Below are positions 122 through 42,687 of a stretch of 57,653 nucleotides of DNA, piece after piece; the first letter of the stretch is position 1, and each line of letters begins with the position of its first letter. A model generated the notes under the pieces. It had not been told where the DNA came from. It saw only the letters and a program-made list of their open reading frames with translations, and ran no database searches. The position numbers and the translations under genes were made by a program. The DNA comes from Terriglobia bacterium (GTDB taxonomy: Bacteria; Acidobacteriota; Terriglobia; 20CM-2-55-15): NCBI GenBank assembly GCA_041481485.1, contig JBGPBY010000003.1, positions 1 through 57,653 of the forward strand, given 5' to 3'.

Positions 122-140
122 CGGTTTTCCAAACCGCCGC
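122..140 (-). repeat. Dispersed hairpin GCGGCGGTTTGGAAAACCG, copy A
   Basis: Identical 19-mer to 28986-29004 in opposite orientation. Confidence 0.8.
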
Positions 141-293
141 CCGAATCTGGGAATGGAGTGAGGTCTTTTGTTTGGGCATAAGACCGGTGTTGCATAGTGG
201 ATATTATACGTAGAAGTTATATTAAATCAGATAAATCACGAAAAAGTAGTAGCAAGGCTCTGCAACCCCCATAAACATTGGGTGTTTTTGCTA

Positions 294-387
294 TGGCGGA
301 GAGGGGGGGATTCGAACCCCCGTTAGGGAGTTTATGCCCTAAAACGGTTTAGCAAACCGCCGCATTCAGCCGCTCTGCCACCTCTCC
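294..387 (-). tRNA. tRNA-Ser(GCT)
   Basis: Minus strand reads GGAGAGGTGGCAGAGCGGCTGAATGCGGCGGTTTGCTAAACCGT...GGGGGTTCGAATCCCCCCCTCTCCGCCA: anticodon loop TTGCTAA, long variable arm, GTTCGAA T-loop, encoded CCA. Confidence 0.97.
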
Positions 388-396
388 GCGGCGTGT

Positions 397-450
397 TATC
401 AACAGCTTACCACATCTTTTTCAATTCACCTGCTGAACAGTTGCTGAACA
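397..450. other. att-associated sites: IHF-like box and tandem arm-type repeats
   Basis: TATCAACAGCTTA (397-409) fits the IHF consensus WATCAANNNNTTR; direct repeat TGCTGAACA at 431-439 and 442-450 lies at the integrase 3' end. Confidence 0.55.
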
Positions 451-1581
451 TTTGTGGAAATCGTCCAAAGTCGTCTCCAAAGTCTTCATCGCCGCCAGGA
501 CTGCCGGGTCAAAAGCTTTGATGTAACGCTCCTTGGTAACGTGCGGTTTTGCATGACGCAGGATGCGCTGGACGACTTTTTCATTCGCGCCCAGTTCATA
601 CAGGTTCGATGCAATACCGCGTCTGCACGCATGCCAGCCGTACCACTCCAGCCGAATTGTCTTCATGGCCGGGCGGATGACTTGTCGACTCAGATTGTAC
701 AAATCCATGTGTTCTCCGCCGCCCGAGTGAAACATCACACCCTTCGACGGACTCCCCATGGAAAAACGATACGTTTCAAGAATTTCTGCTAGTTGCCGAA
801 TGACCGGAACGGATTGGGCGCTGGCTCGGGTCTTGGGTCCGTTTACAACGCTCTTCCAAACGGACCTTGTGACGCTGAGTGAATTGCCCGTGTAGTCAGT
901 CCATTCCAGCCCTCGCAGTTCCCCTTCGCGGAGCCCTGCAAAAGCTGCTGTCGCAATCACAGCTTTTGGTAACAACGGCAGAACGTCCAGAAGCGAACGT
1001 ATCTGGGTCAAACTGTACGCAAAAGTTTCGCGCGCTTCGCGCATATTTCTGGGAATACGGGCATCCTGGACGGGGTTCACTCCATCGAACGCGCCTTCAT
1101 TCTTTGCGTGACTGAAAACGCCGCTGAGCACACTCTTGATGTGCTGCAGAGTAGTTTTGCTTAGGTCGTGTTCTTCGGCGATGGCCTTGAGCATTCTGCT
1201 CGCATCCACCGTTCTGAACTCACGCAAACGAATCTGTCCGACGCGGTCCGACATGTGATTCTTCCAGATTTCCCGATACCCTTTTCTTGTCGAAGCACGC
1301 AACTCGTCGATGTAGGGCAGGTAGATGTCCTCGACAAATTCCTTGAGGTTCATGCTGGTCTCCGGCGTGAACTTGCCGGCGTTGAGCCGATGCATGAACT
1401 CGACTTTGAGGGGCATGATGTCGGATTCGCGTGGATAACGTTCCAGACGTCCTAACATTTTTGCCCGCTGCTTGAATTTGATCGATCCATTTTCCTGCCG
1501 TACTTGGACGCGATACTTTACGTACCAAGCCGCATGGTCTGCATACAAACATCCATCTTGATAACGAACGGATTTGGTCAT
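421..1581 (-). CDS. Tyrosine recombinase/integrase
   Basis: AGLREGELRGLEW (catalytic R), K in GPKT, WHACRR (HxxR), ILRH and ERY (catalytic Y); 386 aa. Confidence 0.95.
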   Translation of the reverse strand: MTKSVRYQDGCLYADHAAWYVKYRVQVRQENGSIKFKQRAKMLGRLERYPRESDIMPLKVEFMHRLNAGKFTPETSMNLKEFVEDIYLPYIDELRASTRKGYREIWKNHMSDRVGQIRLREFRTVDASRMLKAIAEEHDLSKTTLQHIKSVLSGVFSHAKNEGAFDGVNPVQDARIPRNMREARETFAYSLTQIRSLLDVLPLLPKAVIATAAFAGLREGELRGLEWTDYTGNSLSVTRSVWKSVVNGPKTRASAQSVPVIRQLAEILETYRFSMGSPSKGVMFHSGGGEHMDLYNLSRQVIRPAMKTIRLEWYGWHACRRGIASNLYELGANEKVVQRILRHAKPHVTKERYIKAFDPAVLAAMKTLETTLDDFHKCSATVQQVN

Positions 1582-1590
1582 TTTTTCTCC

Positions 1591-40045: not shown

Positions 40046-41387
40046 AGAAAAAATACTTGTCGCGGAGGATGACCGCACGGCGCGTGTATCACTGGCCGAG
40101 TTGCTCGAAGGACAGGGATTCGAGGTTCTGCTGGCCGAAACAGGAACACAAGCCGAATCGATTCTCTCGGAGAACGAGCCGGATCTTGCGCTGCTCGACA
40201 TTCGCATGCCAGGAGCAGACGGCTTGACCGTTCTGCGGAATGCGCGAGCGCGGAGTTCGGACACCGCGCTGATCATCATGACCGCGCATGGAGACAGCAG
40301 CACCGCGATCGAAGCGATGAAGGCCGGAGCCTTCGACTACGTTCTCAAGCCCATCGATTTTCAGCTGCTGCTGCAACAGATTGAGAGAGCGCTTGAGCAT
40401 CGCCGGCTCTTGCGCGAACAAAAGCACGCGGCACCGGGTCCGAAAGTAACTTCTGCCGCCGCCATCGTGGGGCAAAGCCCGGTCATGCAACATATATATA
40501 AGTTGATCGGCCAGGTCGCCGCATCGGATGCAACAGTGCTGGTGCGGGGCGAATCGGGAACGGGAAAAGAGTTGGTGGTGAACGCGATTCACTTCAACAG
40601 CGCGCGCGCGAAAGGTGCACTCGTCAAGGTGAACTGTGCTTCGATCCCCGACTCATTGCTGGAGTCGGAACTTTTCGGGCACGAAAAGGGGGCATTCACG
40701 AACGCGGTCTCGCGGCGGATCGGCCGGTTTGAGGAAGCGACGGGCGGAACCCTTTTTCTCGATGAAATCGGCGAACTGACTCCGGCCCTGCAATCGAAAT
40801 TGCTGCGCGCGGTACAGGAACGAACCATCGAACGCCTCGGCAGCAACGCTCCAATCCCGGTAGATATCCGCTTGATTACGGCGACATCGCGGAATCTCGA
40901 AGAAGCGATTCAGGAAGGAGAATTCCGCGAGGATCTGTACTACCGCCTCAACGTGGTGACGATGTCTTTACCGCCGCTGCGCGAGCGCCGCCAGGATATT
41001 CCCGCCCTCGTGGAATACTTTCTGCATCGTGGAGGAAGGTCAGCATCCATCACGGCGCAAGCGTTGACGAAGCTCAGCCAATACCACTGGCCCGGGAACA
41101 TTCGCGAACTCGAGAATACGATCGAACGTGCGATGGTACTGGCTCGCGAGGGCGTGGTGACGGAGAATGAAATCGAGTTGCGGCCGGCCCAGAGCAGCTC
41201 CGATGAAGGATGGGCGGCACAAGCTCCGGTGGAAGGTGGGTGGGAAGCAAACTTTGCGGAACTCGAGAAGTCGCTGGTCGAGCGCGCGCTTCTTCAAGCG
41301 CAAGGAAACAAGAGCAAGGCCGCGGATCTACTCGGGATTCACCGACGGCTACTGTACGAGAAAATGCGGCGGCATGGGCTTTCGTAG
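40038..41387 (+). CDS. Sigma54-dependent response regulator (NtrC family)
   Basis: Receiver, GESGTGKE, GAFTNA, LFLDEIGE, WPGNIREL, Fis-type HTH. Confidence 0.96.
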   Translation: MGREKILVAEDDRTARVSLAELLEGQGFEVLLAETGTQAESILSENEPDLALLDIRMPGADGLTVLRNARARSSDTALIIMTAHGDSSTAIEAMKAGAFDYVLKPIDFQLLLQQIERALEHRRLLREQKHAAPGPKVTSAAAIVGQSPVMQHIYKLIGQVAASDATVLVRGESGTGKELVVNAIHFNSARAKGALVKVNCASIPDSLLESELFGHEKGAFTNAVSRRIGRFEEATGGTLFLDEIGELTPALQSKLLRAVQERTIERLGSNAPIPVDIRLITATSRNLEEAIQEGEFREDLYYRLNVVTMSLPPLRERRQDIPALVEYFLHRGGRSASITAQALTKLSQYHWPGNIRELENTIERAMVLAREGVVTENEIELRPAQSSSDEGWAAQAPVEGGWEANFAELEKSLVERALLQAQGNKSKAADLLGIHRRLLYEKMRRHGLS

Positions 41388-41434
41388 TGCCCGATGAAGC
41401 GGTTTTTCGTTGGATTTGTCGTTGATGCCTGCAA

Positions 41435-41932
41435 TCAAGTTCCCTCACTGATCTCAGGCGTTCCATTCGAGTTCTTCGGCCCATCAAGCTTTGGCGGCGC
41501 CGTAGCTTGCTTTGGATCTTCCAAGCTCACGGCCACTGTTTCTTGAGGAAGGATTCCCGGCGCTGAGGCCGGAACTAGCAGTTCCCGTATGGATTCGAGA
41601 AGACACTCCACGGGTTCCGTTTTTGAAAGGACCTTCCGCGCGCCCGCCCTTTTGCCCTCCAATTCGATCTGGTCGTTCTTGTGGAGTGTGTACAGAATGA
41701 TGGGGACGGCGGGTGAGTGTCTCAGAATCTCGACGGCCGCGTGGAGGCCATCAAGCATTGGCATGGCGATGTCGAGAATAATAAGGTCGGGCTTCAGCTG
41801 GTGCGCCAGCAAAACGGCTTGCCGGCCGTTGGCAGCCTGACCGCAAACATCCCATTTCCCGTCCTGCGAAAGGACAGTGGACAAAAGTTTGCGAATCTCT
41901 TCGTTATCGTCCGCGATCAGAATCTTCGGCAT
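41435..41932 (-). CDS. Single-domain response regulator
   Basis: ILIADD, PDLIILDIAMPMLDG; no DNA-binding domain. Confidence 0.88.
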   Translation of the reverse strand: MPKILIADDNEEIRKLLSTVLSQDGKWDVCGQAANGRQAVLLAHQLKPDLIILDIAMPMLDGLHAAVEILRHSPAVPIILYTLHKNDQIELEGKRAGARKVLSKTEPVECLLESIRELLVPASAPGILPQETVAVSLEDPKQATAPPKLDGPKNSNGTPEISEGT

Positions 41933-42516
41933 CAGGGCGTGCCCTTTAGAAATGGCAGCCCTTCTGTAGGTTATCCGACATAGGGCCCACGGGACACTAC
42001 AATTGTCCGAAAGAAGGAGGAATACAAAGATTCGTGTATGTCCGACGTACCCCCTCGCAAAGGCCAGTACTCAGGATGTGCGTTGGTGTGACTGCTCCAT
42101 TGGTGTTGTTCGCTCTCCTGCGCCCGCCCGGATTTGCGGCGAGCAATAGCTTGTGGCCTGGAACCTTTCGGGCATTCTGGACCTAACCGTGGCCGTGAGT
42201 ATCGGGGCTCGTCGGCAAATAAGCAACACGCTACCACGCAGAAGTCACAGACATGCTCGGAGGAACTCCCGTGGGGAGGCCGCACCACACCTCTCCCGTG
42301 GCCAACAAATCGGTCAATGGGCAATCCGGAAGTTGGCCAGCCGTCAGATCAGTAACGGCAAAAGCGCTTGTATGAATTAATGGGGCAAGCCGGTTCGGTG
42401 GGCAACCCGACTCAGAGTGTATCCAATTGTGTCCTTCCGGGAGTTCAACTTGTGGCATGCGAGTCTTCGTCAGCTTCGCTCGACTCGCCGTCACTGGCTT
42501 TGAGCTTCAACTGGCT

Positions 42517-42571
42517 CAGAGCCTTGACAGGAGGAGCGGGCGGATCAGGCGCAGGATTTGGCCAGGAAGGG
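42517..42571. repeat. Second copy of the right half of the leading-region element
   Basis: 50/55 nt identical to 6254-6308. Confidence 0.9.
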
Positions 42572-42669
42572 TATTTGGAAGAAAAGACAGTTTTGTTCGA
42601 GACTCACGGAACTGGTGCCAGGTCTCGGAAGCTTCAGGATTTCATGGGGACGAGCCATTCGGCTGCGAT

Positions 42670-42687
42670 GGCGGTTTGGAAACCGCC
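42670..42687 (+). repeat. Dispersed hairpin, copy D (variant)
   Basis: GGCGGTTT-GG-AAACCGCC, one A shorter than copies A-C. Confidence 0.65.

Follow-up and report, generated by a model that had tools for sequence, protein, structure and literature searches.

A serine-tRNA-like anticodon-arm hairpin at module boundaries of tRNA-associated islands in soil Acidobacteriota, and its possible role as a recombination core site

What does a short hairpin that resembles the anticodon arm of a tRNA do between the gene modules of a bacterial island? The question was raised by contig JBGPBY010000003.1 of the Terriglobia bacterium assembly GCA_041481485.1 (Acidobacteriota). The window analyzed here is this entire contig (C3; 57,653 nucleotides), and the assembly, genome G000 below, comprises 7.26 Mb in 756 contigs; G, C and L numbers are our labels for genomes, contigs and loci. 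A hairpin termed H1 recurs along the window and lies once beside a tRNA-Ser(GCT) gene that adjoins a tyrosine integrase. The initial annotation had taken such hairpins as mimics of the arm of this neighbouring tRNA that may serve as secondary attachment (att)-like sites for cassette capture. Our own reading, which is tentative and somewhat short of probable, is that H1 is an anticodon-arm-derived core site for site-specific recombination, by which island modules are exchanged. We arrived at it because the asymmetric centre of the hairpin is kept, homology breakpoints fall inside the hairpin, H1 has a constant polarity towards att junctions, and several gene blocks lie between two direct copies. 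That a recombinase acts on H1, which enzyme this is, and that the copies are active rather than scars, we infer.

The accepted copies in the window and the tRNA gene that they resemble were as follows.

116-142 (core 122-140), minus strand: copy A, an exact 19-mer that folds with 6+5 bp at -14.9 kcal/mol
294-387, minus strand: tRNA-Ser(GCT) gene (ARAGORN; Rfam RF00005, 58.1 bits), with its anticodon arm at 345-363
20867-20891 (core 20868-20886), plus strand: copy B, one mismatch, with an 11-bp inner stem at -26.5 kcal/mol
28984-29009 (core 28986-29004), plus strand: copy C, an exact 19-mer with a 12-bp stem
42670-42687, plus strand: copy D, placed by pattern match, fold, family-type flanks and neighbouring genes

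A pattern scan of the whole window located the 19-mer GCGGCGGTTTGGAAAACCG without mismatch at 122-140 (minus) and 28986-29004 (plus), with one mismatch at 20868-20886 (plus), and with two mismatches at 345-363 (minus), the anticodon arm of tRNA-Ser(GCT). At up to three mismatches, four matches were found against 0.04 expected, a number reached in none of 100 shuffles. The hairpin and the tRNA arm are identical at 17 of 19 positions, and the two differing bases turn GCT into GGA, so the two exact copies and their tRNA likeness were confirmed as first described. The copy previously reported at 20871-20886 is real and belongs to the 19-mer match that begins at 20868. Copy D reads GGCGGTTTGGAAACCGCC, with unchanged arms and a loop shorter by one A. 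It was accepted, in agreement with the initial annotation, as a decayed member because its left and right flanks each resemble flank families that adjoin the motif in other genomes. A further degenerate copy had been claimed at 29498-29513. With three mismatches in 16 bases it stands at chance level, since about 1.06 such matches are expected per window; an unrelated one occurs at 27341.

All accepted copies fold into stems of 6-12 bp around the GGA loop. Copy A, 154 nt downstream of tRNA-Ser(GCT), points the same way as this gene and the integrase, and copies B, C and D are co-oriented on the plus strand. Copy B is a GCCG variant whose stem change is matched on the opposite arm, and its fold energy was equalled in 3 of 200 shuffles. 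Copies A, B and C are located between open reading frames (ORFs) with family matches or overlap only short ORFs without matches; the statement that no copy lies in a supported gene therefore stands for these three, and copy D falls within a 129-aa ORF that has no Pfam match. The tetranucleotide GTAG precedes copy A on the plus strand, as had been noticed, and no other copy.

Across loci, the H1 consensus is a perfect 25-nt hairpin, GGCGGCGGTTT-GGA-AAACCGCCGCC, that is, a near-perfect inverted repeat with arms of 8-11 bp. Its stem is that of the tRNA-Ser(GCT) and tRNA-Ser(TGA) of these bacteria, and it shares 17 of 19 bases with the latter as well. The 7-nt loop is identical to that of the native tRNA-Ser(GGA) of G453, a tRNA whose stem differs. 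This tRNA was used as a stand-in, as a host tRNA-Ser(GGA) was absent from the 33 tRNAs found in the assembly, and no tRNA with the H1 stem carried a GGA anticodon in the genomes examined. The comparison supports a serine-tRNA anticodon arm as the origin of the hairpin, or as the form on which it has converged. When the three central bases were left free in a metagenome scan, GGA/TCC was found in 51 of the 125 matches listed (119 stretches), and the next loop class in 8. Loop variants in clear family context were rare (GAA three times, GTA once). The variants CATAG and CATAA (four genomes) were rejected as family members because they lie in one conserved coding gene, which we take to be glucose-6-phosphate dehydrogenase. 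A longer, flank-specific stem was also considered and dropped: native and chimeric flanks folded equally (mean -18.78 versus -18.85 kcal/mol, p 0.64; copy B entered with the consensus core).

The exact 15-mer core occurred three times in the 7.26-Mb genome, each time on C3, so that exact copies are restricted to the island contig. With up to two mismatches in the 19-mer, additional matches in this genome included two tRNA-Ser(GCT) arms, tRNA-Ser(TGA) and a decayed copy on C354. None of 40 relatives contained the 19-mer at one mismatch or fewer. Among 401 genomes of the phylum, the exact 17-mer was found in G000 only; at one mismatch it matched 21 places elsewhere, of which one was in tRNA-Ser(TGA), none in tRNA-Ser(GGA), and seven in a conserved context that is presumably 23S rRNA. 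A search of one genome per species (185,579 species) yielded 112 stretches with the exact 19-mer, one of them in a tRNA-Ser(GGA) within the tRNA array of a Verrucomicrobiota-labelled metagenome-assembled genome. Twenty of the 112 formed one Rhodobacteraceae-labelled cluster inside an ORF of 174-206 aa and were dropped as coding, and a further 24 loci (from 33) were removed by hand, having the motif in a long ORF and flanks fitting no family. All family counts given here are those after removal of the coding loci. At least 35 of the 80 listed 19-mer records were labelled as Acidobacteriota or its groups, and 49 other H1-bearing genomes carried one to three copies each. A gene start beside H1 was considered and rejected, as ORFs there are 3-20 codons long without conservation at the protein level. 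In Rfam, tRNA was the sole family at gathering score for the window and 14 loci, and for 8 loci nothing was found at E <=1.

The flanks of H1 are mosaic. Left flanks form families that are conserved over 50 to more than 250 nt, right flanks form families of their own, and left and right combine independently. In pairwise comparison of 111 loci, 181 pairs had the same left and different right flanks, 28 the same right and different left flanks, and five shared both. Identity continued no further than 6 nt past the hairpin in 180 of the 181 same-left pairs, and 2-5 nt past it in 25 of the 28 same-right pairs. Since identity ends just past the hairpin, the exchange points would lie inside the shared 19-25 bases. 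Breaks of homology at the hairpins, on which the first proposal depended, were thus observed among these loci as well as in the window.

Within the window, the copies set apart the PDC-M21 pair, a four-gene block with SIR2, a transport and regulation block, and a copper block. The modules concerned were the following.

14331-19493, plus strand: Hhe / PDC-S37-type defence helicase-nuclease (PADLOC PDC-S37, E 0; Hhe, E 1.8e-289), with Pfam matches to DUF4011, AAA_11/12 and MTES_1575
19564-20824, plus strand: PDC-M21A/B two-gene candidate defence module (ORFs 19604-20140 and 20127-20819; PADLOC E 9.7e-45 and 1.4e-65)
21041-28846, plus strand: four-gene block between copies B and C, encoding 1451-aa, SIR2_2, 310-aa and 357-aa proteins
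29010-29421, plus strand: small module after copy C, with a 91-aa ORF at 29104-29379

The 91-aa ORF is followed by transporters, a histidine kinase and a sigma-54 regulator. Copy D stands between this two-component/sigma-54 regulator block and the copper-resistance block, and after it come a multicopper oxidase, a CsoR-like repressor, a TonB-type receptor, a P-type ATPase and a LacI regulator. Forty-five H1-bearing genomes were searched with the 10-kb stretch 19500-29500. The PDC-M21 pair was present in at least nine of them at 66-85% DNA identity, and its homology stopped at about 20770-20824, that is, 44-98 nt ahead of copy B. The small module was found in five genomes (84-89% DNA identity), and its homology to L156 and L157 started at 29010/29011, directly past the hairpin of copy C. 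For the four-gene block, no homolog was detected in the 45 genomes except one 267-nt stretch of 67% identity. The right flank of copy A, by sequence an efflux-carrier-type gene, is also found at L031 and L102; L012 has the same left flank. Homology breakpoints in the window were accordingly located at copies A and C and near copy B.

Blocks between two direct H1 copies were seen three times: 8.1 kb between copies B and C, 1.4 kb in L014, and 7.1 kb with metabolic genes in L237. In the window block, the 1451-aa, 310-aa and 357-aa proteins belong to no family, and the 1451-aa protein had no Pfam, NCBIfam or PADLOC match. Because it lies between two defence modules and between two hairpin copies, the four-gene block is a candidate new defence system. 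Promoter-like sites at 19575-19603 and 29069-29097 end 0 and 6 nt before the starts of PDC-M21A and the 91-aa ORF, respectively; this suggests leaderless transcripts at both module starts. Upstream of copy D, about 55-70 nt of 42514-42586 match four places at 88-96% identity (three G476 contigs and one of G467), which may represent a small repeat.

The position of H1 relative to tRNA loci was strongly one-sided. A tRNA gene or a fragment of at least 20 nt was present within 700 nt to the left of H1 at 51 of 119 loci, and to the right at 3. The left-side tRNAs were Pro(TGG) (11), Asp (11), Met (7), Gly (7), Asn (5), Ser(GCT) (3, window copy A excluded), Ser(TGA) (3), Pro(CGG) (3) and Arg (1). 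The same side of H1 always faced the tRNA locus, irrespective of the orientation of the tRNA, and many of the fragments end or begin in the anticodon arm (e.g., 1-33, 1-38, 1-39, 1-42, 26-77 and 33-77). In G436, a 38-nt direct repeat (tRNA-Met 1-38) bounds a 5.75-kb integrase-less island that encodes a radical-SAM protein and a HipA kinase; within this island, H1 is found 235 nt from the left end. Because the identical hairpin stands beside tRNA-Pro, Asp, Met, Gly, Asn, Arg and Ser(TGA), H1 is not a specific mimic of the tRNA next to the integrase, as had been supposed; the element stays the same, and the islands that it accompanies are at many tRNAs. The idea of an att-like site was retained in part: the breakpoints, the att junctions in anticodon loops and the three direct-copy blocks agree with it, and the tie to the neighbouring tRNA and its integrase was given up.

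The left contig end carries tRNA-Ser(GCT), the integrase, a small helix-turn-helix (HTH) protein, a RepB-primase-like protein, an HTH_3 protein and a ParB-like protein. The genes on which the following depends were these.

421-1581, minus strand: tyrosine integrase, reading towards the 5' end of the tRNA (PF00589, E 4.8e-9)
1594-1812, minus strand: small HTH protein, likely an excisionase (HTH_17, E 3.3e-5, under the Pfam cut-off)
3673-4086: HTH_3 protein
4133-5776: ParB-like protein of 547 aa

Homologs of the integrase adjoin tRNA-Ser(GCT) in G476, G453, G475 and G464, and the small HTH protein is kept beside the integrase in G476 and G453. In G475, the intact tRNA-Ser(GCT) is preceded by tandem tRNA fragments 1-41 and 1-39. 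On account of these tandem copies of 39-41 bases, integrases of the window type cross over at the anticodon arm and duplicate the 5' half of the gene. Another 5' half of tRNA-Ser(GCT), differing slightly, stands at the start of contig C94, and this fits an integrated island. In that case, copy A would lie outside the integrase-carrying island, in variable DNA downstream of the tRNA. Against the NCBIfam models for Xer and integron integrases, the window integrase scored 36.4 bits, far under the cut-off of 220.

Several features of this setting were recorded besides. Between 6363 and 14153 lie genes for an SRAP protein, an imuA-like RecA-fold protein, an ImuB-like Y-family protein, a DnaE2-type polymerase and a separate DinB, with which this mobile element would carry a full set for mutagenic repair. 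At G475:C6:18500-38400 (L291) and G435:C2:4237965-4291425, up to three 5' fragments (1-39 or 1-41) stand in tandem upstream of intact tRNA-Ser(GCT) and tRNA-Ser(TGA) genes; such arrays point to repeated integration by 5'-half-duplicating integrases, a rarer island type. L287 (G453:C18:438500-447000) has a single tRNA-Ser(GCT) with related RepB-Xis-Int modules on both sides, and both of its integrases (62% and 41% identical to that of the window) read towards the tRNA.

How might H1 work as a core site? Its arms would be half-sites bound by a tyrosine integrase that crosses over in the anticodon loop, and the 7-nt centre TTGGAAA would be the overlap region. The corresponding centre of tRNA-Ser(GCT) is TTGCTAA; because the two differ, H1 could recombine with other H1 copies and not with the tRNA gene. 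The changed "anticodon" would thereby make H1 orthogonal to the tRNA target. Recombination between two H1 copies on co-resident islands or circles would join the left side of one to the right side of another, and inserted blocks would be left between two direct copies. In the window, such exchange may have assembled the defence, transport and copper blocks. A broader proposal goes beyond this, and we regard it as possible and rather on the unlikely side: soil Acidobacteriota, and occasionally other phyla, would exchange multi-gene blocks in an integron-like manner between tRNA-integrated islands, using the orthogonal H1 and anticodon-loop-class integrases that act in trans. The blocks meant here hold defence, toxin-antitoxin, metal-resistance and metabolic genes. 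Literature searches with the 13-base core, judged by titles, and by topic, among the papers listed, found no mention of the H1 motif.

A number of observations weigh against recombination at H1. Homologous modules mostly occur without H1 within 1.5 kb (H1 was near the PDC-M21 pair at one of seven loci and near the 91-aa module at none of five), the exception being L014, where the PDC-M21 pair lies between two direct copies. No matching empty site was found for the direct-copy-flanked blocks, nor any pair of empty and occupied loci. Contigs of four public DNA runs over the stretch, at a depth of about 1-6, contained no joint between copies B and C (20.9 to 29.0 kb). In these contigs, other contexts join the 91-aa module at 29003 (one contig, run X7) and 29044; a joint 14786>30472 was weak, with a 20-nt side, and was disregarded. 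The link to integrases was loose as well. Homologs of the window integrase at 50% identity or more were found in 12 of 48 H1-bearing genomes, a descriptive figure that covers hairpin-bearing genomes alone, and an integrase-like gene was present within the 8-kb locus at 8 of 92 genome loci. The closest island relative, with a 91% identical integrase, had no H1 within 1.47 kb downstream of tRNA-Ser, and the far ends of three elements of the window integrase type in G475 likewise lacked it. Furthermore, conservation of the motif is largely fixed by the exact-pattern retrieval of the loci. An identity of 19 bases could allow occasional homologous recombination, and the mosaic flanks are therefore no proof of a dedicated enzyme. 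Finally, at right-arm positions that pair with G, the non-C letters were T in 51 of 79 cases (expected share 0.32, p 1.8e-9, calculated over loci that are not independent), and the right-arm position that pairs with C showed no T bias. This bias points to folding of the GGA strand into a hairpin, in the form of RNA or of single-stranded DNA.

The last observation leads to the main rival explanation, that H1 is an RNA hairpin, which would stop or destabilise transcripts running from the att end into the island and so act as a terminator, an insulator or a retroregulator of the sib/tI type; we consider this unlikely, while giving it serious weight. The mosaic flanks would then be a by-product of rare homologous exchange within the 19-25 shared bases. 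Besides the enrichment of G-T-compatible changes on the GGA strand and the matched stem change of copy B, the gene order suits this explanation. The order is integrase, tRNA/att, 154-232 nt and H1, all co-oriented, in the window and L012, and integrase, tRNA-Pro fragment (in opposite orientation), 207 nt and H1 co-oriented with the integrase in L104; integrated islands hold H1 200-480 nt inside the junction far from int, pointing inwards. Copies B and C, too, follow co-oriented genes and precede promoter-like sites. However, copy D does not follow a co-oriented gene, both copies in L237 are antisense to the flanking genes, and no copy is followed by a T tract; a scan with a terminator consensus called none. 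Terminators need no fixed sequence, yet the 19-mer is identical across many unrelated arms, without flank-specific covariation of a longer stem. Relative to neighbouring ORFs on its left side, H1 was co-oriented in 23 cases and opposite in 27 (crude ORF calling), and with an orientation independent of ORFs a role at the DNA level fits better than a terminator. On a further reading, H1 would be a binding site for a DNA-binding protein of the island, either the ParB-like protein encoded at 4133-5776 or a regulator, in partition, silencing or regulation. A near-perfect inverted repeat in three to four copies on one island with genes for a 547-aa ParB-like protein and an HTH_3 protein would be in keeping with this, as would other palindromes with constant arms and variable centres that recur beside H1 at other loci. 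We find it improbable nonetheless, because a symmetric dimer site needs neither a conserved nor an asymmetric centre and the GGA of H1 is both, no protein family is seen repeatedly within about 3 kb of H1 when loci are compared, a few integrases aside, and binding leaves the breakpoints at the hairpin edge unexplained.

The copies might, alternatively, be inert scars, att cores left from past integrations at an H1-like target. Decayed copies do exist (copy D, C354:4439-4455, the second L014 copy, and those in L142 and L237), and tandem arrays with nested tRNA fragments are common at H1 loci. Scars are expected to decay. The exact 19-mer, however, is intact in at least 45 genomes beside arms diverged past recognition, and the loop was kept in the scan that was unbiased towards it; this explanation too is improbable. 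Still less credible, and very improbable in our view, is a repetitive extragenic palindromic (REP)-like element of a RAYT transposase, or the end of an insertion sequence or a miniature inverted-repeat transposable element, a possibility raised in the initial annotation. H1 is indeed a short, GC-rich intergenic palindrome, GTAG stands ahead of copy A, the genome has three Y1 transposase-like genes, and conserved left with variable right flanks would be seen at an element end. Against this, a given right flank is also seen with different left flanks, other copies do not keep GTAG, the Y1 genes are on C206, C433 and C542, and no transposase recurs beside H1. The reading was largely refuted by copy number: REP families run to tens or hundreds of copies per genome, and here there are three exact and one or two decayed copies in 7.26 Mb, and one to three per genome elsewhere. 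Since the exact copies of its own assembly are on this contig only, H1 is not a REP family. A core site for recombination remains the reading that we prefer.

H1 falls outside the attC, REP and canonical terminator families, since tests showed that it lacks defining features of each. The attC sites of integrons are imperfect palindromes several times longer than H1, with conserved outer boxes and extrahelical bases, in which structure is conserved and not sequence. Like attC, H1 is a short structured site that borders promoter-bearing and promoter-less blocks, occurs in co-oriented arrays, encloses blocks between two direct sites, and shows hints that one strand folds. Unlike attC, it is about 25 nt long, nearly invariant in sequence and a perfect hairpin without a longer flank-specific stem. 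Its blocks hold several genes (1.4-13.7 kb), and in contrast to integron cassettes their homologous modules mostly lack H1. No integron integrase or attI platform was identified, a dedicated IntI search not having been made, and the sole recombinase of the window is the tRNA-side integrase.

H1 works most like an att core of the anticodon-loop class. Islander catalogues att cores of tyrosine integrases in the tRNA anticodon loop ("anticodon centered attP site A"; PMC4383910). Both are anticodon stem-loops with two inverted stem halves and a 7-nt loop (PMC4383910), and both adjoin junctions that split tRNA genes in the anticodon arm and form tandem arrays at the same tRNA. Unlike these cores, H1 stands alone, flanked by no further part of a tRNA, is the same at many tRNAs, and is also found deep in islands between cargo blocks. 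In Acinetobacter plasmids, pdif sites flank dif modules (PMC6449649, PMC13141974). There, as with H1, multiple short sites split an accessory region into recombinase-less modules that are shuffled between replicons. The likeness is one of behaviour only: pdif sites are plasmid-borne Xer sites, related to chromosomal dif and recombined by XerC/XerD, whereas H1 is tRNA-derived, lies in tRNA-integrated islands and has soil Acidobacteriota as hosts. The last comparison turns on the position of sib/tI, a retroregulator whose read-through transcript is processed by RNase III, relative to the att site of lambda. Like this hairpin, H1 can lie a few hundred nt past att from int, co-oriented with int, and at the opposite element end after integration. 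The sib/tI element is the retroregulator hairpin of lambda int (PMC5300877); H1 differs in having no T tract, an 11-bp stem and an invariant sequence across unrelated arms. The sib/tI geometry fits copy A, L012 and L104, and not copies B, C and D or L237, which are far from any att site.

Other hairpins resemble H1 or accompany it. A sister family in metagenomes has the same arms with the loop CCG (CCC in L256) at L169, L189, L225, L244, L256 and L271, and its left flank ends in CTTGATTCTYGGC in L189, L225, L244 and L256. On C354 of G000 (about 4300-4460, L140), the decayed H1 at 4439-4455 is accompanied by three CAACGGT-N7-ACCGTTG hairpins within 130 nt; the ORF upstream of this array is, from its translation, presumably a nucleotidyltransferase toxin of the AbiEii type. 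Several other genomes likewise have CAACGGT-N7-ACCGTTG hairpins, placed 20-60 nt on the right-hand side of H1. A second recurrent hairpin, TTCGG-TTGAAAG-CCGAA, resembles the anticodon arm of tRNA-Phe(GAA) and was seen at L051, L069, L076, L112 and L270 and in the window at 42700-42730. In L076 it runs, by eye, into a T arm and acceptor end and so would represent a 3' fragment of the tRNA; at its other loci the arm alone is left, in parallel to H1.

If H1 is active, it would be a second, independent solution to the problem solved by integrons, namely a fixed short site for the capture and shuffling of unrelated blocks, here inside tRNA-integrated islands. A tRNA-targeting integrase system would in this way gain a private site by changing nothing except the overlap of its target. 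The carriers are abundant, little-studied soil bacteria. Even if H1 proves to be terminator-like, it is a sharp marker that delimits islands and their cargo modules in fragmented metagenome assemblies, among them candidates for new defence systems, the SIR2 four-gene block being one.

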